Under the pieces are notes generated by a model. That model ran no database searches. It saw only the letters and a program-made list of their open reading frames with translations, and had not been told where the DNA came from. This document shows positions 11,323-45,987 of a DNA stretch of 64,000 bases, piece by piece. Source of the DNA: Rhodospirillales bacterium (GTDB lineage Bacteria; Pseudomonadota; Alphaproteobacteria; Rhodospirillales; UBA2165); assembly GCA_965213765.1 (NCBI GenBank), contig OZ243926.1, positions 4,368,479 through 4,432,478 of the forward strand, given 5' to 3'. Position 1 is the first letter of the stretch; each line of letters opens with the position of its first letter. A program made the translations under genes and the position numbers.

Positions 11323-11326
11323 CCGA

Positions 11327-13694: not shown

Positions 13695-14480
13695 CTAGCC
13701 ATGGGCCTGATGATCGCCGGAGCGCGCCGGCTCGAACCAGGCGAGTGTCTCGCCAAGCGACGCCACCTCGCCGATGATGACCAAGGTAGGGGCGGTGAGG
13801 CCTGCGTCGCCGACCCGCTCGGCGAGCGTTCCGAGAGTGCCGTGCACAACGCGCTGGTCCGGCGTCGAGCCGCGGTAGACGGCGGCGGCGGGCCGGTCGC
13901 TTTCGGCTCCCGCGTCCATCAGTTCCTGGGCGATCAATCCGAGATTGGCGAGGCCCATATAGACGACCAGCGTCGTCTCGCCGTCCGCCAAACTCGGCCA
14001 ATCGAAGTCGAGCGCCTGATTGTCCCGGCGGTGGCCGGTGATAACCCGAACGCTCTTGGCCAGCCCCCGGTGGGTCAGCGGAATTCCGGAATAGGCGGCG
14101 CAGGCGATCGCCGCGGTCACGCCCGGCACCACTTCGAACGGGATGCCGTTCTCCACCAGATGCACCGCTTCCTCCGAGCCGCGTCCAAAGACGAATGGAT
14201 CACCGCCCTTCAGCCGGACCACGCTCCGTCCTTCGCGGGCCAGGCGGACCAGCATGTCGTTGATCTCCTCTTGCGGCACTCCCTGTCGGCGGCTCGCCTT
14301 ACCGGCAAAAATGCGGGTTGCGCCGGTCGGGACAAGGTCCAGAACCTCATCCGAAACGAGCCGGTCGTAGACCACGACCTCGGCCGTTTGGAGCAGGCGC
14401 AATGCCTTGACCGTCAGAAGGTCCGGATCGCCGGGCCCGGCGCCGACCAGATACACGGTATGGGGTGTGCTCGCGGACAT
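13695..14480 (-). CDS. cobA: uroporphyrinogen-III C-methyltransferase (SUMT)
   Basis: VYLVGAGPGDPDLLTVKA, VVRLKGGDPFVFGRGSEE and VPGVTAAIACAAYSGIPLTHR. The stop TAG (13695-13697) lies in the CTAG duplicated by the MITE. Confidence 0.9.
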   Translation of the reverse strand: MSASTPHTVYLVGAGPGDPDLLTVKALRLLQTAEVVVYDRLVSDEVLDLVPTGATRIFAGKASRRQGVPQEEINDMLVRLAREGRSVVRLKGGDPFVFGRGSEEAVHLVENGIPFEVVPGVTAAIACAAYSGIPLTHRGLAKSVRVITGHRRDNQALDFDWPSLADGETTLVVYMGLANLGLIAQELMDAGAESDRPAAAVYRGSTPDQRVVHGTLGTLAERVGDAGLTAPTLVIIGEVASLGETLAWFEPARSGDHQAHG

Positions 14481-14489
14481 GGCCGCACC

Positions 14490-15071
14490 CTATTGGGCAA
14501 GCGCCCGCTCGACAAGCTCCCGCGCGCCGTCGCTCAGTTCGAGCGCGAGCGCCGCCTCGTGTCCCCGCGGACTCATCTTCCCCCAGGTCTTGCGGAGAAT
14601 ATCGACGATTTTCTCCGGATCGTGCCTGGCCGAGAAGCCGGACAGGTAATTCTCCAGGAACACGACGCAAATGGTGTCCTCCAAGAGCTGGGTATCGGGA
14701 TCGGACCGGAGGTTCTTCTTCCGCAGCATTGCCCGGACCTTCTCGATCTCGGTCTCGGCGTAGCCGCAGGCCGCCATGATTTCTCCCACCCGGTCCCCAT
14801 GAAACCGCCCGAGGTCGGTGCGCCAATGATGATAGCCCTTCTTGCCTTCCGGGTAACGGTCACGAGGCACCGTCCAACGTTCGATGTGCTGTGCGCGGGC
14901 AGCAATTCGAACGAGATCCGAGGCCTCGGGCGCCAGTCGTTCGAGACAGGCGGACATTCGGCGGCCATAGACCAGTTCCTTCGGCTGCTTTTCGCCGTCG
15001 ACGGTCTCCAGATTCGGATCCCGCGCATTGGCGGCGTCGATCATCTCGATGGCCTGCTCGACGTTTCCCAT
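14490..15071 (-). CDS. DUF4202 domain protein
   Basis: IDAANARDPN, RIAARAQHIERW, GYHHWRTDL, LEDTICVVFLENY and ILRKTWGKMSPRGHEAAL match my recollection of the DUF4202 family. Confidence 0.75.
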   Translation of the reverse strand: MGNVEQAIEMIDAANARDPNLETVDGEKQPKELVYGRRMSACLERLAPEASDLVRIAARAQHIERWTVPRDRYPEGKKGYHHWRTDLGRFHGDRVGEIMAACGYAETEIEKVRAMLRKKNLRSDPDTQLLEDTICVVFLENYLSGFSARHDPEKIVDILRKTWGKMSPRGHEAALALELSDGARELVERALAQ

Positions 15072-22562: not shown

Positions 22563-23672
22563 ATGGCCGGCAACCCGTTCCCGGATAGCCCGTATGACAT
22601 TCGGAGCGATCTGTTGAGTGCGCATGAGGCCGCGCTCACCGGCATTGCCCGTCCCGGCACCTGGCTCACCGCCGGGCAGCGGGTGTGGATTGCCGAAGAA
22701 GTCCGCAATGCCCGGAGTTGTGCGGCCTGCGCCGAACTCAAGGAGGCGCTGTCACCCAACAACCTGTCCCGGGAACATACCTCATTGGGCAATCTGTCTC
22801 CGGCGCAGGTGGATATCGTTCACCGGGTGGTCACCGATCCCGGCCGGCTCAGTGAGGGGTGGTGCCGGGGACATATTGAAGACGGCATGCTCGAGGGCGA
22901 ATTCGTCGAGATGATCGGCGTCATCGCCATGACCGTGATCATGGATACCTTCGCATTCGGCCTGGGTCTTCCGGTGGCCGTCCTGCCCGAGCCCGCTGCC
23001 GGTGAACCCTCGCGCTATTTGCCGCCGGGCGCCCGGCGCGAGGCAGCGTGGCTCCCCATCGTCGAGCCGGGCGACGAGGTGCCGGAGGACGGTCCCCTGT
23101 ATCCCACGCCGACGGCCGGCTACATTCAACGGGCTCTCAGCATGGTTCCCCAATCGAAGCGCGACTATTGGAATCTTGCCGGCGCCCATTATCTGGAGGG
23201 CAGGCAGGTTTATGATTTCGGGAACAGCGTACGTGCGATCACCCGGCCTCAGATCGAGATCATCGCGGCGCGGATATCGGCACTTCATCAGTGCCTCTAC
23301 TGAACGACGGCGCATGCCTACATGCTCCGTGAGAGCAGCAACGCCGCTGACACCGAAATCGACCTCCACGACATTACGGAGGGATATCGGCATGACACCG
23401 GCATCGAGCATGCCGAATTGCTGATGGGCTTCGCGGAGGCGGTCGCGCGGCGGGACGAGAACGGGACATCGGCTCACCGGCAAGAAATGCTCGAGCTGAT
23501 GGGTGAGCCGGCAACCGTGGACGCGGCGGCCATTGCCGGGGCATTCCATGGCTTTGTACGGCTCGCCGATTCGATTGGGATACCCCACGAGGGAGCTGCG
23601 GGCGGCACCGACTCGACCGAAATGCGGGATGAAATCGGGATCAGCGACTTCTATCGCGCCCGGATTGCCTAA
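22563..23672 (+). CDS. AhpD/CMD-family protein, candidate selenoprotein with an in-frame TGA at 23301-23303 (C-L-Y-U-T-T-A-H)
   Basis: ORFs 22461-23303 and 23322-23672 share one frame. Read-through gives ...RISALHQCLY-U-TTAHAYMLRE..., matching the AhpD CxxCxxxH active-site spacing with TGA at the second Cys. AAGGAGG precedes the ATG at 22563. GC3 bias persists after the TGA, a hairpin follows, and selAB is 7 kb away. Confidence 0.65.
23307..23330 (+). promoter_or_regulatory. SECIS-like hairpin downstream of TGA 23301
   Basis: ACGGCGCAUG-CCUA-CAUGCUCCGU forms a 10-bp stem with one C.U mismatch. It starts 3 nt after UGA, and the apical loop begins 16 nt from the U of UGA. Confidence 0.5.
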
Positions 23673-23689
23673 CAGCCGGCAACCGGCCC

Positions 23690-23920
23690 GCGTAGCGCCC
23701 ATTTGCGGCCGAATATCTCCCTTGGCGGGGCCGGCGGGATACGCGCCGGAGAGCCGCCGATACCGCTCGGCCGTCAGTTCAAGGCCGCAGGCCCCGGCAT
23801 TCTCGATTAAGATGCTCCTTGCGGCGTGATCCCGGGATCGGAGGAATTCGTCAACCGGTTGCAGCCGATCCCGAAGGTTGGAATTTCGACGCCCGGGTTG
23901 CCAAATTGCCGCGATTCCAT
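23690..23920 (-). pseudogene. possible relic of an aldo/keto reductase with a large internal deletion
   Basis: The minus strand has GGGGGAG-N3-ATG, then MESRQFGNPGVEIPTFGIGCNRL (AKR-like N-terminus). A frame switch follows to ...SILIENAGACGLELTAERYRRLSGAYPAGPAKGD (AKR-like C-terminus). Only about 75 of roughly 330 expected residues remain. Confidence 0.3.
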
Positions 23921-24045
23921 GGCTCCCCCGTAAATTTTGCGTGCAGGTTGTGCGGTTGCCGGTGAACCCTATAGGATCAAATCACGGCGTGGAAAGCACG
24001 CCGGGCAAACCTGATCAGCGGCGGCGGCGCCGGGGGGAAGGGACG

Positions 24046-25086
24046 ATGAAATTCGGACTATTCGATCACGTGGACGTCAACAATCGTTCGCTGGCCCAGG
24101 AATTCGACGAGCGGCTGGAGTTTGTTTCCGCCGCCGATGAAGCCGGTTTCTACTGCTATCACGTTGCCGAGCACCACGCGACGCCGCTGAACATGGTGCC
24201 CGTACCGGGCGTCTATCTGGGCGCGATAGCCCGGGCGACAAAAAACATCCGGCTCGGTCCGCTGTGCTACCTCCTGCCGCTCTATACGCCCCTTCGTCTG
24301 ATCGAAGAGATTTGCATTCTCGATCACCTCAGCCACGGGCGACTCGATATCGGCGTGGGGCGCGGCGTGTCGCCCTTCGAACTCAAATATCACGATGTGG
24401 ATCCGGACAAGACGCGGCCCGTCTTCCGGGAATGCCTTGAAGCGGTGGTTTACGGGCTGTCCCATGACGTGCTCGATCATCAGGGCGACAACTACTCGTA
24501 CGTCGATGTGCCCATGGAGTTGAGGCCCCTGCAGAATCCCCACCCGCCGATCTGGTATCCGACCAACAACGCCGAAGGCGGGCAATTCGGCGGCGAGAAC
24601 GGCTATCACTTCGTTACTTTGGGCGGCGTCGATTTTGCCCGGCCCGGGGTCGAGTCGTTCAAGGAGGCGCTGGCGAAGCGCGGCCGGCCGGGTGACGGCG
24701 GTGGTGGCGGTTTCAAGGAGGGCGCGGCGGTTGGCATCATGCGCCATCTGGTGATCGCCGAGACCGAGGACGAAGCGCTAAAGCGGGCCGAGCCCGCCTA
24801 CCAGGCTTGGGAGGCGAGCCTGACGAAGCTCTGGCGAGTCAACAAGGTGCCGGGTCCGAACATTGCCCAGTTCATTCCGCCGACGCTCGCCGAGGCGCAA
24901 CAGCGGGGGTCGGTGGTTGTCGGTACGGCCGAGACGGTCAAGGAGACCCTCGCGGCGCATGCCGAAGCACTCGGCCTCAACTACATGGTCCTCGGTTTCT
25001 ACTTCGGCGACATCGCCCACGGACATGCCATGGAGTCCATGCAACGGTTTGCATCCGACGTCATGCCGGCATTGGAGACGATGTAA
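24046..25086 (+). CDS. LLM-class flavin-dependent oxidoreductase
   Basis: Start taken at MKFGLFDHVD. Motifs are YHVAEHHATPL, NIRLGPLCYLLPLYTPLRLIEEICILDHLSHGRLDIGVGRG. It is a paralog of 49739-50785. Confidence 0.85.
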   Translation: MKFGLFDHVDVNNRSLAQEFDERLEFVSAADEAGFYCYHVAEHHATPLNMVPVPGVYLGAIARATKNIRLGPLCYLLPLYTPLRLIEEICILDHLSHGRLDIGVGRGVSPFELKYHDVDPDKTRPVFRECLEAVVYGLSHDVLDHQGDNYSYVDVPMELRPLQNPHPPIWYPTNNAEGGQFGGENGYHFVTLGGVDFARPGVESFKEALAKRGRPGDGGGGGFKEGAAVGIMRHLVIAETEDEALKRAEPAYQAWEASLTKLWRVNKVPGPNIAQFIPPTLAEAQQRGSVVVGTAETVKETLAAHAEALGLNYMVLGFYFGDIAHGHAMESMQRFASDVMPALETM

Positions 25087-25189
25087 GCGGCAAATCCTTC
25101 AGTAGTGCTTGACGTTGCCGCGCCGTCAGACAATAAGAGCGCCGAATTCGGCCTTCACCGTCTCCCCGCCAGCCGAACCCGGAGCCACA

Positions 25190-26362
25190 ATGCCACACCT
25201 GATTTCTCCCCATGGTGGAGACGGTCTACGCCCGTTGCTGATTGAAGCGTCCGAGCGCGAGGCGCGCCGGGCCGCCGCCGCAGGCCTTGCCCAAGTTCCC
25301 ATGTCCAGCCGCGAGACATCCGACCTCATTCTAATGGGCATGGGGGCCTATACCCCGCTGACCGGCTTTATGGGGGAGGCCGATTGGCGAGGTGTCGCCG
25401 GGGACATGAAAATGGTTGACGGAACATTCTGGCCCATTCCGATCACCCTGTCGGTGACCGGGGACCTCGCGGAGACCATCGGCGACGGGGATGACGTCGC
25501 ACTGGTTGACGGCGAGACCGGCACCGTCATGGGCACCATGGCGGTGTCGGAGCGGTACAAGCCGGATCACGCATTCGAGAATGCAAATGTTTTCAGGACC
25601 GGGGACCCGGCCCATCCCGGGGTTGAAAAGGTTCTTGGCCAGCCGCCGGTAAATCTCGGCGGGACGGTGACCGTCTTCGACGAGGGGCCGTTCCGGGCGC
25701 GGTATCCCGACCTCTGCGTTTATCCCCATGAAAGCCGGGCGTTGTTTGAAGAATTGGGCTGGACCCGCGTCGCCGCCTTTAATACCCGGAACCCCATGCA
25801 CCGGAGTCATGAGCATCTGGCAAAAATCGCCATTGAGGTGACCGACGGCGTTTTCATTCATCAGGTGCTGGGCAAGCTCAAGCCGGGAGACATTCCCGCG
25901 GAGATCCGGGTCAAGGCCATCGATGCGATGATTAGTCACTACTTCGCCGGGGAAACCGCTATCCAGGCCGGCGTCCCCCTGGAGATGCGTTACGCGGGAC
26001 CCCGCGAAGCTTTGCTGCACGCCGTGGTCCGGCAGAACTACGGTTGCTCGCATTTGATCGTCGGGCGGGACCACGCGGGCGTCGGAAGCTATTATGGGCC
26101 GTTCGATGCCCAGAAAATCTTCGACACCCTGTGGGAAGGCGCGATCGAAATTCATCCCCTCAAAATCGACATCACATTTTTCTGCACGGCCTGTGGCGGT
26201 ATGGCAACGGCGCGTTCCTGCCCGCACGGCGACGAACACAAGATCCAGATCTCGGGGACCCGCCAGCGGGAGATGCTGGCCGGCGGCGAGGATATCCCGC
26301 CGGAGTTCAGCCGGCCGGAAGTGGTGGCTATACTGCGCGAGTTTTACGCCAATCGAAATTGA
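25190..26362 (+). CDS. sat: sulfate adenylyltransferase (ATP sulfurylase)
   Basis: Start taken at MPHLISPHGG. FNTRNPMHRSHEHL and HLIVGRDHAGVG are the ATP-sulfurylase signatures. About 390 aa. Confidence 0.9.
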   Translation: MPHLISPHGGDGLRPLLIEASEREARRAAAAGLAQVPMSSRETSDLILMGMGAYTPLTGFMGEADWRGVAGDMKMVDGTFWPIPITLSVTGDLAETIGDGDDVALVDGETGTVMGTMAVSERYKPDHAFENANVFRTGDPAHPGVEKVLGQPPVNLGGTVTVFDEGPFRARYPDLCVYPHESRALFEELGWTRVAAFNTRNPMHRSHEHLAKIAIEVTDGVFIHQVLGKLKPGDIPAEIRVKAIDAMISHYFAGETAIQAGVPLEMRYAGPREALLHAVVRQNYGCSHLIVGRDHAGVGSYYGPFDAQKIFDTLWEGAIEIHPLKIDITFFCTACGGMATARSCPHGDEHKIQISGTRQREMLAGGEDIPPEFSRPEVVAILREFYANRN

Positions 26363-26379
26363 GCGGGGGGATCGGATCC

Positions 26380-28017
26380 GTGGCGAAACTGACCGGCGCG
26401 GCGGCGCTGACAAAATCAATCGTTGGCCACGGTGTCGATTCCATATTCGGGTTGCCCGGCGCCCAACTTGATCCGTTGTTCGACAGTTTTCACGCCGAGC
26501 AGGACCGGTTGCGCGTCCTGCATACCCGGCACGAGCAGGGCGCGGCCTACATGGCATTGGGGTACGCCCACTCTACGGGCCGGGAAGGGGTGTGCACCGT
26601 CGTTCCCGGGCCGGGCGTGTTGAACGCCGGCGCCGCCCTGCTCACGGGATACAGTCTTGGCGCCAAGATGCTGTGCATCGGCGGGCAGATTCCCAGTTGG
26701 GGTATCGACAAGAGCATTGGCCTTCTCCACGAAATGATGGATCAGAAAGGAACGATGTCGGCAATGACCAAGTGGCAGGCCCGTGCCGATACCGTTGGCG
26801 AAGGACCTGGATTGATCGCCGAAGCCTTTCGCCAGATGAATACCGGACGCAGCCGGCCGGTGTTTATCGAGATGGCGACCGATATCATGCGTCAATCCGA
26901 TGACGTCGAGCCGGCGAACCGACCTGAAACCTATGATCAGCCGGAGCCGGACCCCGACCTGATCGAGCAGGCGGCCGCCTTGCTCGGCAATGCGGAGAAC
27001 CCGGCGATATTTGTCGGCGGCGGCATCTTCGGTGCCGAGGAGGAATTGCTCCAGCTGGCGGAAGAGTTGCAGGCACCCGTCTTCATGAGCGCCCAGGGCC
27101 TCGGTGCGGTGGACGGCCGCCACCCTCTGGCGCAGAACCTGATCGCGGCGTCACACACGTGGCCCAAGGTCGATGTGGCGCTGGCGGTCGGGACGAAATT
27201 TCTGCTGCCCATTACCCAGTGGGGATGGGACGACGATGTCAAACTGATCCGGGTCGACCCCGACGCGGAGCAATCGGTGGCGCGCTGGCAACCCGATATC
27301 CATCTGGTCGCGCACGGCAAACCCAGCCTTGCCGCCATGGTGGATCGTTTGGGCCGTCACAACCGGTCCAGGACGCCGCGCGAAGACGAGTACCGCGATC
27401 TCAAGAACGCAGCCGACAAGGAACTTGCCGAAGCGCTGCCCGGACAAGTGGCCTATGGCCGGGTCATTCGCGATCGGCTGCCTGATGACGGCATTGCCTG
27501 CTTCGGCGTTACCCAAATGGGCTTTTACAGTTGGTGGGGCTTCCCGACATATTCGCCCAGGACCAATTTGCAGCCCGGGCTCCAGGGAACGCTCGGATAC
27601 AGCTTCCCGACGGCGCTCGGCGCGCAGGTGGCGCATCCGGACAAGAAAGTGGTCTGCGTCGCCGGTGACGGCGGCTTTATGTTCGGAGCGACCGAACTCT
27701 CGACGGCCATCCGTCACGGGATCAATCTGGTCACCTTGATTTTCAACAACAATGCATACGGTAACGTGCAGAAGCTGCAGACCCTCGATTTTGGCGGACG
27801 GCTGATTGCTTCGGACTTGGCGAACCCGGATTTCGTGAAATTCGCCGAATCCTTTGGTGCGATGGGGCTGAGGGCGGAGAGCCCCGAGGATCTGGGGGAC
27901 AGGCTCGATGAAGCGTTTGCCGCCGACGCGCCCGTGCTGATCGACGTGCCCTTCGATGAACTGCCCGACTGGAGGCCGCTGGAGCGGCGTTACCGGATGC
28001 GCGGCAACGCGGACTGA
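26380..28017 (+). CDS. thiamine-diphosphate-dependent enzyme (acetolactate synthase large-subunit-like)
   Basis: GTG start. N-terminal Pyr domain: GVDSIFGLPGAQLDPLFD...HEQGAAYMALGYA...VPGPGVLNA. C-terminal PP domain: CVAGDGGFMFGATELSTAIRHGINLVTLIFNNNAYGNV. Confidence 0.8.
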   Translation: MAKLTGAAALTKSIVGHGVDSIFGLPGAQLDPLFDSFHAEQDRLRVLHTRHEQGAAYMALGYAHSTGREGVCTVVPGPGVLNAGAALLTGYSLGAKMLCIGGQIPSWGIDKSIGLLHEMMDQKGTMSAMTKWQARADTVGEGPGLIAEAFRQMNTGRSRPVFIEMATDIMRQSDDVEPANRPETYDQPEPDPDLIEQAAALLGNAENPAIFVGGGIFGAEEELLQLAEELQAPVFMSAQGLGAVDGRHPLAQNLIAASHTWPKVDVALAVGTKFLLPITQWGWDDDVKLIRVDPDAEQSVARWQPDIHLVAHGKPSLAAMVDRLGRHNRSRTPREDEYRDLKNAADKELAEALPGQVAYGRVIRDRLPDDGIACFGVTQMGFYSWWGFPTYSPRTNLQPGLQGTLGYSFPTALGAQVAHPDKKVVCVAGDGGFMFGATELSTAIRHGINLVTLIFNNNAYGNVQKLQTLDFGGRLIASDLANPDFVKFAESFGAMGLRAESPEDLGDRLDEAFAADAPVLIDVPFDELPDWRPLERRYRMRGNAD

Positions 28018-28037
28018 ACCGAACGACGGAGATACGC

Positions 28038-28892
28038 GTGAGACTCATTTCCTATGAACTGAATGGCGCCGAGGGCGTCGGCGTCATGGTTGACGACAGC
28101 GGTTTCGTGCCGGCCGCGGGTGCCGCCTCCGATTTGCCCGCCACGATGCTGGGGTTGCTGGAACAAGATGGCGCCATCGACGCCTTAAAAGGCGCCGCCG
28201 ATGGAAAGCCCGCCGAGATGACTCTCGCGGACGTGAAGCTGTTGCCCGTGGTCCCCAATCCCAAGGCCATCTGGTGCGTCGGGGTCAACTACAAAGAGCA
28301 CCAGGATGAGACCGGGCGAGGCGCCCAGGAAGAGCCGATGATCTTCCTGCGTATCGCCGAGGCCCAGATCGCCCACGGCGACCCCATGGTTCGCCCGAGT
28401 TTCTCCGATACGCTGGACTGGGAAGGTGAGCTTGCGGTCATTATCGGCAAGCGGGGCCGCGCCATCCCCAGGGAAAAGGCGTTTGATCACATTGCAGGCT
28501 ATTCCATCTACAACGATGGCACGGTCCGCGAATGGCAGCGGCACACCAGCCAATTCGTACCGGGTAAGAATTTTCAGGACACGGGCGGGTTTGGTCCGTG
28601 GATGGTGACCCCCGACGAGTTTGGTGATCCCTACGCCCATGAACTGACCACCCGGATCAATGGCGAGCAGGTTCAGCACACCGGCATCGCCGCGATGGAT
28701 CACAAGATCGACAAGCTGATCAACTACCTGTCGACGGCCATTGCCTTGAACCCGGGCGACGTCATTGCCACCGGAACGCCGGGCGGGGTCGGTTCGCGCC
28801 GCGACCCGCCCTGGTACATGAAACCGGGTGACGTCTGCACCGTCGAGATCACCGGGATCGGCGTACTCGAAAACCCGGTGATCGACGGCTGA
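28038..28892 (+). CDS. fumarylacetoacetate hydrolase (FAH) family protein
   Basis: KAIWCVGVNYKEH, DWEGELAVIIGK, IAGYSIYNDGTVREWQ and GDVIATGTPGGVG are canonical FAH-family motifs. Confidence 0.85.
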   Translation: MRLISYELNGAEGVGVMVDDSGFVPAAGAASDLPATMLGLLEQDGAIDALKGAADGKPAEMTLADVKLLPVVPNPKAIWCVGVNYKEHQDETGRGAQEEPMIFLRIAEAQIAHGDPMVRPSFSDTLDWEGELAVIIGKRGRAIPREKAFDHIAGYSIYNDGTVREWQRHTSQFVPGKNFQDTGGFGPWMVTPDEFGDPYAHELTTRINGEQVQHTGIAAMDHKIDKLINYLSTAIALNPGDVIATGTPGGVGSRRDPPWYMKPGDVCTVEITGIGVLENPVIDG

Positions 28893-28895
28893 CGC

Positions 28896-30098
28896 TTAGG
28901 GTAGGCGTCCGCCGGGCGCGACGCCCCAAGCCATATCAACGATTTTCTCGTCCGCGGCCTCATCGCAGGCCTTCTTGAACGCGGCCATCACCTTGGCGCC
29001 GGTGGTTTCGTTCCAGAACCAATCGGCGATCTGCATGCTCGACGCGATGCAGCCTTCGGCCGCCATGGCCTCCGAGTAGTAGGCCTTGAAGTCCTCGCCG
29101 GCGAGCTTCAGCGCCATGGCCAGCGGGAACTCCGGATTGGGACTGCGGATACCCTCGTCCTCGACGAAGGCCAGGAGCAACTCGCTCGCCATCTCGATAT
29201 TCATTCCGCTGACACCGACGGTGGTTCTGCCGCGGCGCGCCTTGGCCTTCTCATAGGCCGGACGGAGGACTTCGATCTCGGCGTTCATCGCAGCTCTGAG
29301 GCCGGCCAGATCATCGGTGTCCTCAAACGCCGGCGGCAGCTCGATGGCGCAGGTCCAACCGTCAGCCGGCTTGCCGTCCGGCGGGTCATCGCCGAAGTCC
29401 GCCAGCACGGGCCCCGAGGGGCTCTCCATGAGTTTGAGTTGCTGCTTCAGCACCTGTTTCTGGAACTCGCCGTCGGTCGGTGCGCCATAAGGGCGGCCCA
29501 ACTCAAATGGCACGGCGAGACCCCTCGGCACGCCGATCTTCTCGGTATGGAGCTTGATCAGGCTGATGATCGCCGTCACAAAGCCTTCCCGCTCAAGGTA
29601 GTTGGCCAGCACGCTCACGGCGCGCGTGCACATGGGTCAGACGCCCGATAAGGCGACCGCGTCGACGTTGTCCTCTTTGAGAATTGCCGCGACCTCCTTG
29701 GCATTCTGCTCCATGCCGGTGGGGTCGGTCGCGCCCATGAACGAGACATGATTCTTCGCGATTGAGCCGATGAAGCCTTCTTCGGCGAGTTCCCTAATTC
29801 GATCGATCGGGAAGGACACGTTGATGTCTTCCTGAAATCCCGACCGGTCATAGTTGGACGAAACGTGGCTCATAAACAGGTCCGCGCCGTCCGTCTCGGA
29901 AGGAATGACGCGATAATCCGCATCGCCTCTGAAAAACGGGCGGTCGGTTTTGAGATGAAGTCCGGCGGAAGAGACAATCGCCACCCGCATTTCGCTGAGC
30001 GGTTTCGCCTCGTTCCAGGCACTACTCCCGACCTCCGGCATTACGAGGTCGGTCATCCGCTGCGCCATCGCGGGCGCCAGCGCGTCCATCCTAACCAT
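28896..30098 (-). CDS. GrdB/PrdB-family (glycine/betaine/D-proline reductase selenoprotein B-like) protein, candidate selenoprotein with an in-frame TGA at 29637-29639 (U-P-M-C)
   Basis: ORFs 29637-30098 and 28896-29633 are in one frame, separated only by TGA-CCC. Read-through gives ...NVDAVALSGV-U-PMCTRAVSVLANYLEREG. Landmarks SAGLHLKTD, FPIDRIRELAEEGFIG and FMG resemble PrdB/GrdB, with the TGA at their Sec position. GGAG precedes the ATG at 30098. The gene is divergent from selA. Confidence 0.7.
29609..29629 (-). promoter_or_regulatory. SECIS-like hairpin downstream of TGA 29637-29639
   Basis: The mRNA reads UGA-CCCAUGU-GCACGC-GCGCCGUGA-GCGUGC. This is a 6-bp GC-rich stem with a 9-nt loop containing GU. 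The apical loop begins 16 nt from the U of UGA, the same offset as at 23301. Confidence 0.5.
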
Positions 30099-30273
30099 GT
30101 ATCACTCCATCCAATGAGTTAACGAATTCGCTGGCGGGACTAGATCGGAATTCAAAATTCCTGTCAAACCCCACTCTCCCTTTGGTGCGCTTGCCACTAT
30201 TCGGGAACCTTGACGGACCCAAATCGGCGAAATAGCCTCCGGGGACTCAGGGAAATCGGGCGTCTGTTTGACC

Positions 30274-31701
30274 ATGACAGAGACCTCCAAACCGCTGCGG
30301 GCCGTGTTGCCGTCGGTAGATAAACTGCTGCGCCATGATGATGGCCGGGCGCTGGCCGAGGCCTACGGCCGTGCGGCGACCACGGATGCCGTCCGCGCCG
30401 TCATCGACGAATTGCGGCAACGAATCCTCGGCGCCGGCGAGGATGCCGATACCGCGGAAGAGGCCGTGCTGGCTTCCGTCGCGGATCTGTTGGCGGCGAA
30501 ATCGGCGCCGTCGCTCAAAAAAGTCTTCAACCTGACGGGCACGGTCCTGCACACCAACCTGGGCCGCGCACCCCTGCCGCGGGAGGCGATCGAGGCCATG
30601 ACCCTCGTAGCCGGCGGCGCCTCCAACCTGGAATACGATTTGGAAGGCGGTAAGCGGGGCGACCGGGACGTTCACGTGGATGAGTTGTTGGCCGAGCTGA
30701 CCGGCGCCGAGGCGGCGACGGTGGTGAACAACAACGCGGCGGCGGTCCTGCTGGTCCTCAATACGTTGGCCAAGGGCAAGGAGGTTCCCGTTTCCCGCGG
30801 CCAGCTGGTGGAGATCGGCGGCTCGTTCCGCATGCCCGACATTATCCGCCGGGCCGGCTGCAAAATGCATGAGGTCGGGACCACCAACCGGACACATCTT
30901 AAGGATTTCGAAGAGGCCATCAGCGACAAGACGGCGTTGTTGTTGAAGGTCCATACCTCCAATTACGAGGTGCAGGGCTTCACCAAGGAGGTGAGCGACA
31001 CTGAACTCGCCGCGCTGGCACGGAAACACGGCATTCCCTGCGTTGATGATTTAGGCAGCGGCACGTTGGTGGACCTCACTCAATTCGGCCTGCCCCACGA
31101 ACCGACGGCGGCGGAAGCGTTGGCCCACGGCATGTCCGTGGTGACGTTCTCCGGCGACAAGCTGCTGGGCGGGCCGCAGGCCGGCATGATCGTCGGCAAA
31201 AGGGAACTCATCGACAAGATCAAGAAGAACCCGATGAAGCGGGCCTTGCGGATCGACAAGGTGACCATGGCGGCGCTGAGCGCCGTGCTCCGCCTCTATC
31301 TCGATCCCGACCGCCTCGCGGAGCGCATGCCGGCGCTCAGGCTGCTGGCGCGCCAAGCCGATGAAATCGCCGCGACCGGCAAGCGGATCGTCGATCCGGT
31401 GTCCCGGGCGTTTGACGGGATCGCCGCCGTTGAGTTGGTCGGCTGCCAGAGCCAGATCGGCAGCGGTTCCCTGCCGGTGGAGCGACTGGACAGCGTCGCC
31501 CTCGGCATTACCCCGTCAACCGGCAAGCGGGGCGGCGGTGCCGCGCTCAATCGAATCGCCAAGGCGTTCCGCTCACTCCCCATCCCGGTCATTGGCCGGG
31601 TTCACGAAGGCGCCTTCCTTCTCGATCTCCGCTGCCTTGAAGACGTAGAAGCCTTCGTCGGCCAGCTCGACGGGTTGACGCCGGGGGGCGCGTCCAGGTG
31701 A
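30274..31701 (+). CDS. selA: L-seryl-tRNA(Sec) selenium transferase
   Basis: [66 protein letters not shown] and [13 protein letters not shown] (PLP-Lys context). ORF 30268-31701; the ATG at 30274 is preferred. Confidence 0.9.
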
Positions 31702-33626
31702 TCGTCGCGACCGCCGGCCACATAGACCACGGCAAGACCCTACTGGTGCGGACCTTGACCGGGGTCGATACCGACCGGCTGCCCGAAGAGAAAAAACGCG
31801 GCATGTCCATCGATCTGGGCTTCGCTTACAAGCCGATGGCCAGCGGCAAGGTCATGGGATTTGTCGACGTGCCGGGTCACGAGCGCTTCGTTCGCAACAT
31901 GCTGGCCGGCGTTTCCGGCATCGATTACGCGCTGCTGGTCATCGCCGCCGACGACGGACCCATGCCCCAGACCGAGGAGCACCTGGCGATCCTCGATCTC
32001 CTCGGAATCGATCAAGGGGTGGTCGCGCTGACCAAGATCGACCGGGTCGACGAAGCGAGGATCAAGGACGTCACCGAACAGATCGAGTTCCTGTTGATGG
32101 AGACCGGCCTCGAGGGATCGGAAATCCTGCCTGTGTCGGCGGTGACCGGCGATGGGATTGATGAACTCAAGGAGCATCTGGCCATCGCTTCCGAGCTGAT
32201 CGGCGACCGGGACGTTCACGGCAATTTCCGCCTCGCCGTCGACCGGGCATTTACCCTCCAGGGCGCCGGCCTCATCGTCACCGGCTCGGTGTTCGCGGGG
32301 GCGGTGAATGTGGGCGATCAGCTGACCCTCACCCCCGGCGGCCAGAGCGTCCGGGTGCGCGGCATCCACGCCCAGAACGAGGAAGCGGAGGCGGGTGCGG
32401 CCGGTCAGCGCTGCGCCCTCAACATCACCGGCCAGAACCTCACGAAGGACGACGTGCACCGGGGCGGCTGGCTGGTCGCCGATGCGATCCACGATCCCGT
32501 TTCCCGGTTCGATGCCCGGCTCCGGGTGCTGCCGAGCGAGGCCAAGTCTCTCAAGCACTGGACGCCGGTCCATGTCCATCTGGGCGCCGCCGAAATTCCG
32601 GGCCGTGTCGCGGTCCTCGAAGACAAGAACATCCCGCCCGGCGAGAGCGCGTTGGTGCAGATCGTTCTCGACCGGCGGATCGGCGCGCTGCGCGGCGACG
32701 GATTCATTCTTCGCGATCAGTCGGCGACCCGGACGGTCGCCGGCGGCCGTGTACTCGACCCCCACGGCCCCGCCCGGGGCCGTGCCAAGCCGGAACGTCT
32801 TGCCGCTATCGCCGCCATGGAGGAACGCACCGCCGCCGATGCGCTCCGGAAGATTCTCGACCAGCAGGCGCTGGGCGTCGATCTCCCGGCGTTCATCGTC
32901 AGCTGGAACCTGAACGACGATGAACAGGCCGCGCTTTGGGACGCGGTCGAGATCGTCCGTGCCGGTGAGAATCTGGAGACCGGCTACGCGCCCGCGCACT
33001 GGACCAAAATCCGGGACGGCATCACGGCCGCGCTCCGGGCGTGGCACGAAAACGCACCCGAGAAGCCCGGGCCCAGTGCCGACGGGCTTCGCCGCGAGAC
33101 CGGTGTCCGGATGCCGACCAAACGGTTTACGCCGATTATCGAAACCCTGGTCGCCGACGGAACCATCATCAACCGGGGCGCCAGCTATTTCCTGCCGGGC
33201 TTCGAGCCCCAACTGTCGTCCAAGGACGAAGCGCTGTGGAAGCGGGTCAAGCCGATCCTCGAAGACGGGCATACCAAGCCGCCGGTGGTCCACGACATCG
33301 CCGAGAGGATCAAATCGCCCGCCAAGGCGGTGGAGAGCTTCCTCGTCCGCTGCGCCCGGCTGGGCCTCGTCTATCGCGTCGCCAAGAACCGGTTTCTGCT
33401 TCCCGATGCGGTCCTCGAACTCGGCGAGATCGCCGAGGCCTTGGGCCGCGAGAGCAAGGAGCAGGGCTTCGGCGCCGCTGACTTCCGGGACCGCTCGGGG
33501 GTCGGGCGCAACCTCGCCATCGAGATTCTCGAATATTTCGATCATGCCGGCCTCACCTGGCGGAGCGGCAACGAGCGCAAGGTCCTCAAACCGGCCGCCG
33601 AGGTTTTCGGCGACACACCTGGATGA
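31698..33626 (+). CDS. selB: selenocysteine-specific translation elongation factor
   Basis: [48 protein letters not shown] and ALTKIDRV (GTPase G1-G4), plus a long winged-helix C-terminal extension. The GTG start overlaps the selA stop as GTGA. Confidence 0.9.
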
Positions 33627-33645
33627 GACTCCGGCTCGAGGCGAA

Positions 33646-35277
33646 CTAACCCCGATCCATGATCGACGGCGCGGCGAGCGAACCCGATCCCCGCCGGGGG
33701 AATTTGGCAAAGGCATAGCCCTGCTGATGACAAGCCTTGGTGATCACCAGCGCCTTCCAGAACCCGCCGCCGATGAGGACGAACACGCCGGCGGCGCCCA
33801 GCACCCAGACCGGCACGGCGGCCCACGCGGCGGCCGCGGCGAACAGCACCACGGGGATCAGGTGCCCCGACACATTGAGCATGGCTGTCGATGATTCCAG
33901 GATTCCCCGGCTCAACGGGCCGATGCCGTTGGCCTTGGCGCCCTGCACATACATTCGCCACAGGCCGTAATTGATCAGGCCCAGAAGAATGCCGGCGAGA
34001 GGCAGCAGGAAACCGCCCTCGAATGAAATCCCGTAGACCGCGAACACGATGGCCGAGAGGCCGACTCCTTCGTAGAGGCCGGTGGCCACCAGCATGGTCG
34101 GCATCATGGCGACCCGCCAGGTGGGGATGCCCTTGGCCATGTGCAAAATCTTGGCTTGGCAATAGAGAAAGACCAGGGCGGCGGCGCCCGCCAGGAAATG
34201 AAGCGACGGCAGCTGCCAGAGGAAGCCGGCGGCGATGGCCGGATACAGCACCCCGACGGCATAGATTTCGCGGCTCATCCATGAAGTTTGCGGGCGCAGG
34301 ATGGCAAACGGGGCGCGCAGCTTTCGGCCGATCTTGAGCCAGACGAAAAACAGGCCGGCGGCGATGATCCCGGCGGCGCCCAGGTTCATCTTGGTGAGCG
34401 TGGCGCCGTCGAGGCCGGCGAACAGATGCAGCAGGTAGGCGACCACGATCATGCCGGCGCCGAACCCGCCGAGGATGAAATTCATCGCCGCCCGCATGTC
34501 CCAGAAGGTCTGGGGCTGGCCGACCAGCGGATTGGCCGGATCGCTCATCGCCTCGTCGCCGGTATCCGCCGCATTGAGGTCCCGGCCCGGCACCGCCGGC
34601 GTCTCGTAGAGATATTTGATCTGCGGATCGGTGCCGAGCTCCGAATGCATCTGGAAATGGCTGTTTTCCTCCGCAAGCCTGGAGACGTGGCTGTCGGGGT
34701 CGTTGAAGTCGCCGAATTGGATCGCACTGGCAATGCACGACGCGGCACAGGCCGGGGTCGCGTCCGGATCCACCCCCGGCGACAGGCCGGCGGCGATACC
34801 GTCATCGACCCGGTCAATGCAGAAGGTGCACTTCTGGGCGACGCCGAACCGTTCGTCGTGGGCGACCGCTTCTTCCTGAAGCGTCTCCTCTCCGAAATAG
34901 AACTCCTTGTCGTGAACGATGGTCCGCGCCTGATAGGGGCAGGCGACGGCGCAGGATGCGCAGCCGATACACAGATCGTAGTCCATGGTGACCAGCCCGT
35001 CGGCCCGCTGCTTGGTGGCACCGGTCGGGCAGACGGGCACGCAGGGCGGCTCGGCGCAGTGCTGGCAGCCGACCACCATGAACACCCGCTCCACATCGGG
35101 GAAGGCGCCGGTTTCCACGTCCAGAACCCGCCGCCATTGAACCCCGGGGACCGTATCGTTGGCATGCTTGCAGGCGATGGTGCAGGTCTGACAGCCGACG
35201 CAGCGATTGACGTCGACCACCATGCCCCATCTGCGCTCCTCGGCGCGCCGGGACGGATCGGATGAAACCCCGTTCAC
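33646..35277 (-). CDS. fused 4Fe-4S ferredoxin-type (DmsB/PsrB/PadC-like) and polytopic membrane-anchor (DmsC/NrfD/PadD-like) subunit
   Basis: The N-terminal roughly 230 aa carry CVGCQTCTIAC, CQHCAEPPCVPVCP, CIGCASCAVACP and CTFC. The C-terminal roughly 300 aa are highly hydrophobic with multiple predicted TM helices. It lies downstream of the Mo subunit. Confidence 0.8.
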   Translation of the reverse strand: MNGVSSDPSRRAEERRWGMVVDVNRCVGCQTCTIACKHANDTVPGVQWRRVLDVETGAFPDVERVFMVVGCQHCAEPPCVPVCPTGATKQRADGLVTMDYDLCIGCASCAVACPYQARTIVHDKEFYFGEETLQEEAVAHDERFGVAQKCTFCIDRVDDGIAAGLSPGVDPDATPACAASCIASAIQFGDFNDPDSHVSRLAEENSHFQMHSELGTDPQIKYLYETPAVPGRDLNAADTGDEAMSDPANPLVGQPQTFWDMRAAMNFILGGFGAGMIVVAYLLHLFAGLDGATLTKMNLGAAGIIAAGLFFVWLKIGRKLRAPFAILRPQTSWMSREIYAVGVLYPAIAAGFLWQLPSLHFLAGAAALVFLYCQAKILHMAKGIPTWRVAMMPTMLVATGLYEGVGLSAIVFAVYGISFEGGFLLPLAGILLGLINYGLWRMYVQGAKANGIGPLSRGILESSTAMLNVSGHLIPVVLFAAAAAWAAVPVWVLGAAGVFVLIGGGFWKALVITKACHQQGYAFAKFPRRGSGSLAAPSIMDRG

Positions 35278-35314
35278 GATATCGGGCCTTCATTGAGGCC
35301 GCCCCCGCCCCGGC

Positions 35315-35339
35315 GCTCCCCCCTCGAAGGGGAGGGAGC
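35315..35339 (-). other. intercistronic GC-rich hairpin between the Mo subunit and FeS/membrane subunit genes
   Basis: GCTCCCCCCTCGAAGGGGAGGGAGC forms 10 pairs (including one G.U wobble) with one mismatch around a GAA loop. It sits in the 112-nt gap between 35390 and 35277. Confidence 0.6.
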
Positions 35340-35389
35340 ATGAGGTAGGGGCGTCAGCGCCGTCGATATCGAGCGTGCGGCCGCCTCGT

Positions 35390-38134
35390 TCATGCCGCCG
35401 CCCGCTTGGGCCCGTCGCCCTTGATTATCTTCACCCGCGTGATGTCCGAGCCGCTGCCCGTGGAATCGGTCAGCTTAAGGGACAGATCGGTCAGCGAGTT
35501 CAGGCTCGGCAGGTGCAGATCCTTGGCGTAGGGTGTCTTCCAATGATCGAACTGACCGATCATCAGGACCGTATCCGGCCGGATCCCTTCCCGGAGCACC
35601 GCATGGCCGCGGGTCTCGCCGGAGATCGACTGGATGGTCACCGGATCACCCTCCTCAAGGCCCAGTTCCCGGGCGCGTTTCCGGTTGATGATAACGCCCT
35701 TGTGGCCGGCGATATTGTTGGCCACTTCGTTGATCATCGGAATGCCCACATTGGCGCCCCAGGAATACTGCATGGAGCGCGAGGTCAGCGCCCAGAAGGG
35801 GAAGGCGTCCGGATCGCCGCCCTGATCCCTGACGTAGTTGAGCCAGATATCCGGGAACCGTTGGTAGGTCGGCATGGGCTCGTACTCTTCGAGCTGTTCG
35901 TCCCACCATTCGACGCCGATTTCATGGAGCCGGTGGGCGAGCTGGGTGCCGTGGCGCTGGATGCGTTCCTGATAGGGCAGCTCGAAACGGATGCCGTTGG
36001 CCTTGAGGTGCGGGTACAGATACCAGTGAAGCTTGGAGAACGGCCTGAGCATGTAGCCGTGCTCCTTGAACCAGTCGATGCCGACCACGTTCTCGCCGTT
36101 CGACATGTCGTGGCTCGCCGCCTTGGCGGTGGCGTCCCAAATCTCCTCAAGCCCGTGGGGCTTGGCCTCATCGAGGCCGTAATCGTAGTCGCCGGTCACC
36201 AGCCGCATGCCGGCGGCGCCCTTATTGATGGCCTTGTTGTAGGCCTCCAGGATGCCGCTGCGCTCGGCGAGCGCCGTCGCGATGTCGGTCATGTCCTTGG
36301 AATCGACTACCGTGTCGCCGGCGGGCTGACGGATGCACCAGCCCTCGTGACCCCAGAGCTGCTCGATGAACTTGGTGTTGCCGAGCTGGATCAGTTGGAG
36401 GCTTTCCAGGTCGGTGTTTTCCGGCAGCAGGATGTCGGCGAAGTGGTTGGTCTCGTCGTGGGTGTAGGCGAAGGCGACGATGAACGGGAACTCGGCCACC
36501 CGCTCCGCGACCTCGGGCGCATTCCAGGACGAGATCGCGGGATTGGTCCGGTAACAGAACCACATGGCGGGCTTGGTCGGCTTCGGCCAATTCTCCGGCG
36601 GGCGCTTCTGGAACAGCCACGGCAGGTGGGCGGGCCCCAGCGCCGGCGACCACGCCGAATCGGCGACCAGCGGGACCAGCGTCCGGAAGGCGTTGCGGAT
36701 GTGGGGCTTGGCCTGCCATTCCTGCTTGGAGGTTTCGTTGAACGGGAACTCCATGAAACCGTCCCGGTTGATCACTGCCGACGTCTTGCGGTCATCGGCG
36801 GGCCGGTTGAGCTTCACGTTGGTGCCGATCATGCCGCCCGGCACTTCGAGGGCGCCGACCAGGGTCAGCAGCAGCGTCCGTGCCCAGCAGGCATTGTAGC
36901 CGCCCCAGCCATTGTTGACCGTCTTGCCCAGCAGGATGGCGACGGGCCGGTGGGGGAGGGTCCGGCCCTCGATTTCGATGCTCGCGCCGACGGTGGCCTG
37001 CTCGATGAACTCGTCGGCCACCTTGCGGATCTTTTCGGCGGGGACATCGCACTCTTCCGCCGCCCATTCCGGCGAATAGGGCTCGATATGGTCGAGCAGC
37101 TTCTGGTGGGCGGGCTGCGCCTCCACCGAAGCGTGCTCCCAGCGCTGCCCGTCGGGGCCGTCCTCCACCCCCGCGCAGGTATAGGCGCCCTCCAGGGCGG
37201 GATCCTTGATCTCCGCATCGAAGGGCTTGGCCGTGTTGTCGGCGAGGTCCCAGATCAGGGGTTTGAGGCTGACGGGATCGCGCATGAAGTAGCCGTTGGG
37301 ACCGATCAGGTAGGGCGCGTTGGAATCGTCGGCGATCCGTTCCATGTCGCAGATTTCCCGCCACGGACGCTCGATCAGGATGCGGTTGATCATGGCATAG
37401 AGGAAGGCGACGTCGGTCTTGGGCTTGACCGGGATCCATTCGGCCGATACCGCGCCGGTCACCGACAGGTGCGGTTCGATCTGAACCCGCTTCATGCCCC
37501 GGGCCCGCCCGTCCGCGTGCCGCCAGATGCCGGCGACGCCGGCCGACGCATCCCCGTTATGGCCGAAGGAGACGATGTAATTGCAGTGGGGCGTGTCGGG
37601 CGCGACGATAAACGCCCGGTGCCACAACTCGCCGTACAGGTGTTCGGAGTGATAGCACTTCACCCCCTGGCCCGCGCCGAAGCCGAGATCGACTCCGCCG
37701 AAGGCAGAGAGCAGGGCGGGGAAGGTACCCATGTACTGGGTCGGCGTGCCGCCGCCGCCGAAGCTGGCGGCGATTTTGGGATACCCGGATTCGTCCAGCG
37801 GCCCGTCGGCCAACGTGTCCTTGATCTTCTTGCCGACGATGTCGAGGGCCTCGTCCCAGGAGATCGGCACGAAGCCGGGATCCTCGTCCCTGCCTTTCCT
37901 GGGATTGGTCCGCTTCATCGGCGAGGCGATGCGGTGCGGGTTATAGGTCTTCTGGATCAGCCCGTAGGCCTTGACGCACACCCGGCCGCCGCCGGGATGT
38001 TCGTCCTCGATGTCGTAGTTGGATTCGATGCGGGTCGCGACGCCGTCCTCGACCTCGACCTTCATCAGATCGGGCCCGGCGACGCACTGGTAGCAGAAAA
38101 TCGGGACCTGTTTCTTGGTTTTGATTTCGTTCAT
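35390..38134 (-). CDS. molybdopterin (bis-PGD) oxidoreductase catalytic subunit, cytoplasmic type (PadB-like / DMSO reductase family)
   Basis: 914 aa with no twin-arginine leader. The N-terminal motif FCYQCVAGPD...RVCVKAYG keeps only part of the CxxCxxxC...C FS0 motif. VKCYHSEH lies at the expected Mo-ligand region (Cys, no TGA). There is a C-terminal molydopterin dinucleotide-binding-type beta-barrel (GDPVTIQS...G..VLREGIRPD). Confidence 0.8.
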   Translation of the reverse strand: MNEIKTKKQVPIFCYQCVAGPDLMKVEVEDGVATRIESNYDIEDEHPGGGRVCVKAYGLIQKTYNPHRIASPMKRTNPRKGRDEDPGFVPISWDEALDIVGKKIKDTLADGPLDESGYPKIAASFGGGGTPTQYMGTFPALLSAFGGVDLGFGAGQGVKCYHSEHLYGELWHRAFIVAPDTPHCNYIVSFGHNGDASAGVAGIWRHADGRARGMKRVQIEPHLSVTGAVSAEWIPVKPKTDVAFLYAMINRILIERPWREICDMERIADDSNAPYLIGPNGYFMRDPVSLKPLIWDLADNTAKPFDAEIKDPALEGAYTCAGVEDGPDGQRWEHASVEAQPAHQKLLDHIEPYSPEWAAEECDVPAEKIRKVADEFIEQATVGASIEIEGRTLPHRPVAILLGKTVNNGWGGYNACWARTLLLTLVGALEVPGGMIGTNVKLNRPADDRKTSAVINRDGFMEFPFNETSKQEWQAKPHIRNAFRTLVPLVADSAWSPALGPAHLPWLFQKRPPENWPKPTKPAMWFCYRTNPAISSWNAPEVAERVAEFPFIVAFAYTHDETNHFADILLPENTDLESLQLIQLGNTKFIEQLWGHEGWCIRQPAGDTVVDSKDMTDIATALAERSGILEAYNKAINKGAAGMRLVTGDYDYGLDEAKPHGLEEIWDATAKAASHDMSNGENVVGIDWFKEHGYMLRPFSKLHWYLYPHLKANGIRFELPYQERIQRHGTQLAHRLHEIGVEWWDEQLEEYEPMPTYQRFPDIWLNYVRDQGGDPDAFPFWALTSRSMQYSWGANVGIPMINEVANNIAGHKGVIINRKRARELGLEEGDPVTIQSISGETRGHAVLREGIRPDTVLMIGQFDHWKTPYAKDLHLPSLNSLTDLSLKLTDSTGSGSDITRVKIIKGDGPKRAAA

Positions 38135-38148
38135 GGAACCCAGGCGGG

Positions 38149-38559
38149 TCAGCCCGCTCCCTCGATTTTTTTCCGTTTGGCGATCAGGCGTTCCCTGGTC
38201 TTTTCATTGTCGACGACGAACCGGTTGTGCTTGCCGCGCCCGACCTGTTCGACGGCGTCGGTGACCACCGCTTCCATCATCACCATCCGGCCGTCGACGC
38301 CGATAACCTCGATGCTGACCTCGACCCAGGTACCGGCCGGGGTCGGCGCCATGTGATCGACGGCGACATGGGTGCCGACCGTATTCTGCTCGTCGGGCAG
38401 ATGCCGCTGGATGAATTCCTGACACGTCATCTCGATGTCTTCGACCATGGAGGGTGTCGAATAGACCGCGAGTTCCTCGTCCATATGAGAGATAATCCGG
38501 CCGGCATCGATATCGATCCGCCTTGTGTGCTTCATGCCGGCCTTGACGTCTTCAATCAT
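38149..38559 (-). CDS. hotdog-fold thioesterase (FlK / fluoroacetyl-CoA thioesterase-like family)
   Basis: 136 aa. ...AVYSTPSMVEDIEMTCQEFI...EQNTVGTHVAVDHMAPTPAGTWVEV...GKHNRFVV is the pattern of small hotdog thioesterases. It is the first gene of the Mo-enzyme operon. Confidence 0.55.
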   Translation of the reverse strand: MIEDVKAGMKHTRRIDIDAGRIISHMDEELAVYSTPSMVEDIEMTCQEFIQRHLPDEQNTVGTHVAVDHMAPTPAGTWVEVSIEVIGVDGRMVMMEAVVTDAVEQVGRGKHNRFVVDNEKTRERLIAKRKKIEGAG

Positions 38560-42869: not shown

Positions 42870-42959
42870 TTACACCTCGTTTTGGCGGTTTTCCGCTAAC
42901 TTCCTGATTTCAAATCGCGATTTCTTCCAAGTGGTACACAAAGGTGGTACACACGATGG

Positions 42960-44763: not shown

Positions 44764-44769
44764 TAGTTG

Positions 44770-45984: not shown

Positions 45985-45987
45985 TGT

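Follow-up and report, generated by a model that had tools for sequence, protein, structure and literature searches.

A selA–selB operon beside two selenoprotein genes of known families in a Rhodospirillales genome

The 64,000-nucleotide stretch analyzed here, referred to as the window, comes from a Rhodospirillales bacterium (GenBank assembly GCA_965213765.1, contig OZ243926.1, forward-strand positions 4,368,479–4,432,478) and carries the selenocysteine (Sec) genes selA and selB within a locus at 22563–33626. The selenocysteine synthase gene selA (30274–31701, + strand; TIGR00474, 601 bits) is followed by selB, encoding the Sec-specific elongation factor (31698–33626, + strand; TIGR00475, 474 bits), the start of which overlaps the selA stop (GTGA). 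Two genes with an in-frame TGA lie within 7.7 kb upstream of this pair. The first (22563–23672, + strand), 6.6 kb upstream of selA, encodes a 369-residue AhpD-related protein with a CxxU motif (HQCLYU; TGA at 23301–23303). The second (30098–28896, − strand) is divergent from selA, with 175 bp between them, and encodes a 400-residue PrdB/GrdB-like protein with a UxxC motif (SGVUPMC; TGA at 29639–29637). Genes were called by frame-specific analysis of GC content at third codon positions (GC3) and translation, followed by Pfam and NCBIfam scans, which reproduced all the genes and coordinates of a preliminary description of this DNA. When the whole window was scanned for coding-like open reading frames (ORFs) joined by a TGA, only these two genes emerged as real candidates; the split pairs 17023/18295, 19632/19344 and 59556/59076 were rejected as adjacent genes in a common frame.

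The AhpD-related protein is a member of NCBIfam NF041238 (AhpD_rel_CFYUT, alkylhydroperoxidase-related (seleno)protein), scoring 428.4 bits over residues 13–364 against a cutoff of 175. It fell below the thresholds of Pfam CMD PF02627 (20.5 versus 23 bits) and TIGR01926 (34.7 versus 81.8). The predicted Sec is residue 247, in the context ...ALHQCLY-U-TTAH..., giving C244-L-Y-U247, and an extra C53xxC56 pair is present near the N terminus. All 120 homolog clusters among the matches listed end at about residue 246, directly after HQCxY, and the TGA is therefore conserved. At the nucleotide level, the codon at this site was TGA in 72 of the 72 sequences in which the motif was found (the window included), with no Cys form among them. 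The 122 codons after the TGA are conserved family-wide, tblastn alignments reaching residues 365–369. The table of a 2026 review (PMC13188914) equates NF041238 with 'hypothetical protein 1' from the Sargasso Sea selenoprotein survey of 2005 (PMC1088965). The window protein agrees with this family in its full-length match, in the position of CxxU and in having a selenocysteine insertion sequence (SECIS) hairpin directly downstream, but carries CLYUT in place of CFYUT and has a SECIS stem of only 5 bp.

The PrdB-like protein has its predicted Sec at residue 154 (...LSGV-U-PMCTRAV...; U154-P-M-C157-T-R). It matched Pfam GRDB (PF07355) with 38.6 bits against a gathering threshold of 22, over residues 16–151 only, which makes it a superfamily member. 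Its score against the PrdB equivalog TIGR04483 was 145.8 bits versus a cutoff of 300, over residues 20–225 only, and its scores against the GrdB models TIGR01917 and TIGR01918 were 48.9 versus 602 and 50.5 versus 65.45. About 175 C-terminal residues form an extension without a known domain. The window contains none of the partner genes prdA, grdE and grdA, the neighbors of the PrdB-like gene being an FAH-family hydrolase gene and selA, and no second GRDB-family match turned up among the window ORFs scanned or among the genes listed for related loci. The low model scores, the C-terminal extension and the missing prdA or grd partner together exclude the protein from both the true PrdB and the true GrdB proteins. 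Compared with PrdB of Clostridium sticklandii and GrdB, it shares a homologous domain (residues 20–225) with Sec at the equivalent position but remains far under the family cutoffs, and its UPMCTRA motif has no counterpart of the second Cys in UxxCxxC of GrdB.

Homologs place the PrdB-like TGA at a Cys/Sec position. Full-length Cys homologs read PVCPxCTR, with Cys aligned to U154 of the window protein, and many database entries are fragments of 240–250 residues that start right after the TGA. The codon was TGA in 71 of 80 genome loci (motif PV-U-PxCTRAV), and these TGA forms span Alpha-, Beta-, Gamma- and Deltaproteobacteria and Chloroflexi, together with single metagenome-assembled genomes of Clostridiales and Gemmatimonadaceae. 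Environmental 'proline reductase PrdB' homologs with pfam07355 and UxxC have been described in Global Ocean Sampling data, as 235 Sec and 110 Cys forms, and count among the most abundant marine selenoprotein families (PMC2398784). The common features are a GRDB/PrdB-type N-terminal domain, a UxxC Sec, a predominance of Sec forms and presence in aerobic Proteobacteria from the sea and fresh water. We infer from these that the window protein belongs to that group, the papers giving no directly comparable sequences.

A conserved SECIS hairpin follows each TGA within the coding region (numbering with the U of UGA as +1; synonymous-site entropies over distinct sequences, 78 PrdB-like and 56 AhpD-related). 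The PrdB-like hairpin (29604–29630, − strand) has an upper stem pairing 29625–29620 with 29614–29609, a CGUGA loop at 29619–29615 and a short lower stem pairing 29629–29628 with 29606–29605. Across the 78 sequences, third-codon entropy was 0.1–0.43 bits from +15 to +31, compared to 1.2–1.9 outside. The conserved stem pairs G15–C21 with N25–C31, five of its seven pairs forming in 96–100% of the sequences, and the loop positions G22 and U23 never vary. The AhpD-related hairpin (23321–23339, + strand) pairs 23323–23327 with 23333–23337 around a CGUGA loop at 23328–23332. Here, entropy was 0–0.22 bits from +21 to +36, compared to 1.0–1.9 at most flanking sites encoding residues equally conserved in amino acid; the hairpin codons are fixed as Leu CUC, Arg CGU, Glu GAG and Ser AGC. 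The family stem pairs 21–27 with 33–39 around C28-G29-U30-G31-A32, and its core pairs, 23/37 to 27/33, form in 96–100% of the 56 sequences. A Met-to-Ser change reduces the stem of the window gene to five pairs. Neither hairpin was significant when single sequences were folded (z = −2.2 and +1.0), and Rfam gave no SECIS model match in the window at gathering or relaxed thresholds. The minimum-energy hairpin of the AhpD-related gene (+7 to +30, loop CCUA) was not conserved in the comparison and was rejected as the SECIS because it overlaps variable synonymous sites.

The two elements have the same CGUGA loop and the same closing pair, consistent with predicted binding by one SelB. The 'shared UGA-to-loop geometry' of the preliminary description holds for the loop sequence but not for the spacing, as the invariant GU begins 21 nt (PrdB-like) or 28 nt (AhpD-related) after the first UGA base, a difference of 7 nt. 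The distance from the UGA to the start of the stem is 11 nt for the PrdB-like hairpin and 17–19 nt for the AhpD-related one. The minimal upper stem–loop of the Escherichia coli fdhF SECIS lies 11 nt downstream of its UGA, with GU in the loop. The PrdB-like hairpin matches this arrangement in distance and in its invariant loop GU, whereas the AhpD-related one begins farther downstream. Judged from alignment with Cys or TGA in hundreds of homologs, conserved downstream ORFs and near-invariant synonymous sites at the hairpins, both TGAs are Sec codons, as had been suggested at the outset.

The Sec machinery encoded beside these genes looks intact. Both selA and selB are full length; SelA has the pyridoxal phosphate-lysine motif GDKLLGGPQ at residues 294–302, and SelB has its G1/G3/G4 motifs (including TKID) and winged-helix domains. 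The inactivity of selAB, which the preliminary description had named among the findings that would refute it, finds no support in these features. No tRNA-Sec gene (selC) was found in the 64-kb window by ARAGORN, by Rfam or by Rfam relaxed to E ≤ 5, and the negative is meaningful because ARAGORN finds tRNA-Sec in 30 related loci. The sole tRNA detected by ARAGORN and Rfam is tRNA-Ser-GGA (42779–42869), bearing out the earlier remark that no UCA-anticodon tRNA is present. For SelD, there was no Pfam domain among the 39 larger candidate ORFs, no active-site motif in any window frame and no tblastn match in the window with an E. coli SelD query, which did give clear matches in 13 related loci as a positive control. 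The absence of selD from view was thus upheld, as was that of a formate dehydrogenase gene, given that the nearby molybdenum enzyme scored 54.7 bits against a formate dehydrogenase cutoff of 666. Among related loci (denoted by L-numbers), selC lies between selA and selB in L143, L145 and L152, and it has been relocated or lost from beside selB in the lineage comprising the window (33626–33646), L001, L016 and L178.

The genomic contexts of both families were compared in other genomes. The PrdB-like set consisted of 80 species-level genome loci, the best-scoring 80 matches; the AhpD-related set, also of best-scoring matches, consisted of 79 metagenome loci, with L096 from the same species left out. 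A selA, selB, selC or selD gene occurred in 16 of the 80 PrdB-like loci and within 1 kb in 12 of them. For the AhpD-related gene, selA, selB or selC occurred in 20 of 79 loci and within 1 kb in 18, though 43 of the contigs are shorter than 6 kb. Each family showed at least four gene orders with sel genes. The PrdB-like gene is divergent from selA (window, L016 and L072), follows selA–selB–selC (L025), ends a complete selA–selB–selC–selD–PrdB-like cassette (L049 and L089), is convergent with selC–selB–selA (L006 and L028) or is convergent with selD, usually with selC nearby (L035, L044, L045, L050, L051, L057, L059 and L063); in nine loci it lies 64–270 bp from selD. The AhpD-related gene lies 43–91 bp from selA in eight loci, and in three (L143, L145 and L152) it belongs to an apparent AhpD_rel–selA–selC–selB operon. 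Each family is therefore independently and repeatedly drawn to sel genes, across many lineages and gene orders. Both co-occur with Sec machinery in many genomes and always as TGA forms, rather than never doing so or being represented there by Cys forms or not at all, the outcomes that the preliminary description had named as fatal to a locus-level interpretation.

In L050 (11297–13528), SelD is the C-terminal part of a 743-residue ORF, an apparent fusion with the active site CGGCGAK, and selC follows about 1.3 kb beyond; L035, L044, L045, L051, L059 and L063 have a similar selD arrangement. PMC2398784 mentions an NADH-dehydrogenase–SelD fusion type, of which this may be a case. An attempt to find conserved neighbors of the AhpD-related gene by clustering raw ORFs all against all was dropped, as high GC produced too many spurious overlapping ORFs.

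Genes of a third selenoprotein family, UGSC, were also found near sel genes (L012–14, L116, L120, L145 and L152), which suggests a general clustering of clients. A 479-residue thioredoxin-like protein with a CPTC motif and a TGA-split UGSC gene recur near AhpD-related and sel genes (L012 at 11125–13112, L013, L014, L032, L095, L116, L120, L143, L145 and L152), so multi-selenoprotein neighborhoods exist in other lineages; a targeted search showed them in 8–13 loci. Clustering of the Sec trait with an organism's only selenoprotein gene, fdhA, has already been described (PMC5029168). As in those clusters, the clients here adjoin the machinery, and L049 and L089 hold a full selABCD-plus-client cassette; unlike in those clusters, the clients are PrdB-like and AhpD-related genes, and the window lacks selC, selD and signs of recent transfer. 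Our literature search found no paper on the frequent adjacency of the AhpD-related family to selA, selB and selC, nor on the strength and variety of the sel linkage of both families. A search on 'PrdB-like' selenoprotein gave no match, an Actinomarina selenoprotein preprint being irrelevant.

We consider it probable that the locus is an ordinary chromosomal neighborhood, in which a selA–selB operon sits beside two client selenoprotein genes of known families that are not each other's partners. SelB with Sec-tRNA(Sec) would bind the coding-region hairpin after each UGA and insert selenocysteine. Each product would most likely act as a thiol/selenol oxidoreductase, cycling via a selenenylsulfide between U154 and C157 or between C244 and U247. 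The clustering itself likely arises because the Sec trait and its clients are inherited and regulated together. The selC and selD genes would be encoded elsewhere in the genome; retention of the TGA, SECIS and downstream ORFs between lineages of ~60% identity (60–62% amino-acid identity in L001/L016) speaks for this.

Several points weigh against this interpretation. The linkage percentages are rough because the sets are best-scoring matches and include near-duplicate contigs (L116/L120, L143/L145 and L099/L149), and the share of genes expected within 1 kb of sel genes by chance, well under 1% (~0.2–0.5%), is an estimate with no computed control. We can only infer a working Sec system in this genome, since neither selC nor selD was found in the 64-kb window, and selC is beside selB in most related loci but not in the window, L001, L016 or L178. 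The PrdB-like protein, modeled by AlphaFold2 with a predicted local distance difference test score of 80.5, gave no Foldseek match in the PDB at E ≤ 1e-3 from this model and no phmmer match.

The strongest competitor, which we nevertheless regard as unlikely, is that the two selenoproteins act in selenium handling itself, reductively releasing or delivering selenide to SelD or SelA or protecting intermediates. Tight and recurrent linkage in several orientations would fit such a role, as would the short distances of the AhpD-related gene to selA and of the PrdB-like gene to selD. Yet a nearby sel gene is the exception in both families: among loci with at least 5 kb on both flanks, none lay within 10 kb in 32 of 43 PrdB-like and 9 of 13 AhpD-related cases. 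Cys forms of the PrdB-like protein also occur in sel-free contexts (L008), UGSC genes cluster in the same places, as general client clustering would have it, and trait clustering with a sole client is already known for formate dehydrogenase (PMC5029168). A specific version, in which one protein liberates selenide for SelD, the other serves as a selenol/thiol relay for SelA and adjacency reflects function rather than co-inheritance, is a little less likely still.

The preliminary description had proposed that the two selenoproteins form a redox pair of undescribed function. In its fullest form this would be a dedicated pair in one undescribed pathway, possibly together with the genes between them and with ATP sulfurylase activating selenate. 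These genes encode a luciferase-like monooxygenase (LLM; 24046–25086, + strand; Pfam PF00296, 148.7 bits), which is outside the Sec system, the ATP sulfurylase Sat (25190–26362, + strand; NF003166, 479 bits; PUA_2 and ATP-sulfurylase domains), a thiamine diphosphate (ThDP) enzyme of PRK08266 type (26389–28017, + strand; NF006122, 670 bits versus a cutoff of 571) and the FAH-family hydrolase (28038–28892, + strand; PF01557, 222 bits). The CxxU and UxxC motifs and the position of both genes upstream of selAB speak for a pair, and the arrangement is kept in L096, L181 and L010 at 89–99% nucleotide identity. However, the families lie together only in these same-species or close relatives (L096 and L181 at 98–99% nucleotide identity, the latter, ENA ERZ25069711 ctg16157, being 98.9% identical over 21.6 kb; L010 at ~89–94%) and, weakly, in L060, where a partial AhpD-related match with 42% identity lies 9 kb from the PrdB-like gene. 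L060 is the sole such case in the 80 PrdB-like loci, and the PrdB-like gene was found in 0 of the 79 AhpD-related loci. The pairing is therefore unsupported, and we regard it as very improbable.

Comparison of more distant relatives leads to the same view. In L001/L016 (60–87% amino-acid identity), the order molybdenum enzyme–selB–selA–PrdB-like–FAH–ThDP–sat...LLM is kept, with the PrdB-like, FAH, ThDP, sat and LLM products at 61–77% amino-acid identity. This co-occurrence might favor a common pathway, but the 20-kb loci contain no AhpD-related gene, and none lies up to 10 kb from their PrdB-like gene. The AhpD-related gene starts 24 bp after the stop of an S41 peptidase gene, with a strong ribosome-binding site (GAAGGAGG), and is separated from the LLM gene by 370 bp, which places it outside the sat operon. 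Homologs of sat, LLM and FAH are absent from all sel-linked loci outside this lineage, so the suggestion that sat might activate selenate was not borne out. ThDP homologs elsewhere (56–72% identity) occur with AlaDH and TauE or with aldehyde dehydrogenase, with no sel genes nearby. Nor are the proteins undescribed, both families having been listed as selenoproteins since 2005 (PMC1088965; PMC13188914; NF041238; PMC2398784).

The idea of a compact island, taken in a mobile sense, is likewise unsupported. GC content across 22–34 kb is 0.62–0.67 and shows no deviation from the 62% of the whole window, and L178 (64–67% identity) keeps the backbone CtaA...S41 peptidase...ThDP...selA–selB while lacking selC and both selenoprotein genes. 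On this conserved chromosomal backbone the cluster forms a mosaic. Within it, the LLM–sat–ThDP–FAH block is metabolic cargo specific to the lineage. Its probable service in organosulfur rather than selenium metabolism is suggested by scattered sulfur-related genes in the window, namely sat and, at 4679–8050 and 12694–15071, a sulfatase, an arylsulfotransferase and a siroheme-like CbiX/uroporphyrin methylase/DUF4202 group, and by L176, in which a ThDP homolog occurs with a TauE sulfite exporter, AlaDH and an arylsulfotransferase. A promoter and terminator scan of 22–34 kb gave counts equal to those of shuffled controls.

Another reading would attribute the presence of selAB to the molybdenum bis(pyranopterin guanine dinucleotide) (Mo-bisPGD) enzyme downstream of selB, as a former selenoenzyme like that of fdh–selAB loci, leaving the TGA genes incidental. 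A FlK-type thioesterase gene (38559–38149, − strand), the Mo-bisPGD gene (38134–35390, − strand; 914 residues) and a gene for a fused FeS/membrane subunit (35223–33646, − strand; 4Fe-4S/DmsC-like, 525 residues) do abut selB as a trio (33646–38559, − strand) in the window, L001, L003, L016 and L181. The 914-codon Mo-bisPGD ORF is uninterrupted, so the statement that it has no in-frame TGA stands. The enzyme is nearest to ArrA/PsrA and falls in the ArrA/PsrA/PhsA clade, not among formate dehydrogenases. All full-length homologs found by HMMER in 1.84 billion representative proteins and aligned (37–59% identity) have Cys in GVKCxHxEH, and no systematic truncation at this site was seen, shorter fragments breaking elsewhere. 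The enzyme was accordingly ruled out as a hidden or former selenoenzyme. Other sel-linked loci have no molybdenum enzyme near selAB, and we judge the reading highly improbable.

The molybdenum subunit has no twin-arginine leader, carries an incomplete N-terminal Cys motif (CYQCVAGPD...C) and has Cys in GVKCYHSEH. Its homologs P0386, P0404, P0418 and P0425 stem from low-quality assemblies, as partial or frameshifted translations, and their starts at about residues 190–200 reflect the chance presence of internal Met codons, not a recoded stop.

That the TGAs are real stops in split or decaying genes, with the Sec system inactive here, is scarcely credible: the lack of selC and selD in the window and the insignificance of either hairpin folded alone are set against frames as conserved after both TGAs as before them, synonymous sites near-invariant exactly at the hairpins, TGA kept across phyla and full-length selA and selB with catalytic motifs.

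The components of the locus are already known, and it illustrates a known pattern well without amounting to a new system. Standard gene-calling programs break each of the two genes at its TGA, so that they appear in public data as 'hypothetical proteins' of 246 + 116 and 153 + 245 residues. Both families rank with the most abundant selenoproteins in the environment, and they are the usual sel-gene neighbors in proteobacteria whose sel genes lack a Sec-type formate dehydrogenase. Together with this neighbor pattern, the few genomes with a minimal selABCD-plus-PrdB-like cassette offer testable handles on function. The 78- and 56-sequence alignments define conserved bacterial SECIS variants with one loop and two spacings. 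The strength and variety of the linkage leave a small chance of a role in selenium handling itself.

Elsewhere in the window, three luciferase-like monooxygenase genes occur within the 64 kb (10291–11322, 24046–25086 and 49661–50785). The region 53851–59553 encodes the large subunit (776 residues) of a xanthine-dehydrogenase-family molybdenum hydroxylase together with FeS and other genes, and no in-frame TGA was seen there. A low-GC segment (42779–46700; 0.55–0.58) beside tRNA-Ser-GGA contains an IS630-type DDE transposase in split ORFs (44695–43717; Pfam DDE_3 match), an IS3-like OrfA (46347–45988), a type I restriction specificity-subunit-like ORF (44767–45984) and gene fragments, these latter identities being read by eye; the segment probably represents a decayed islet that entered the chromosome at the tRNA gene.

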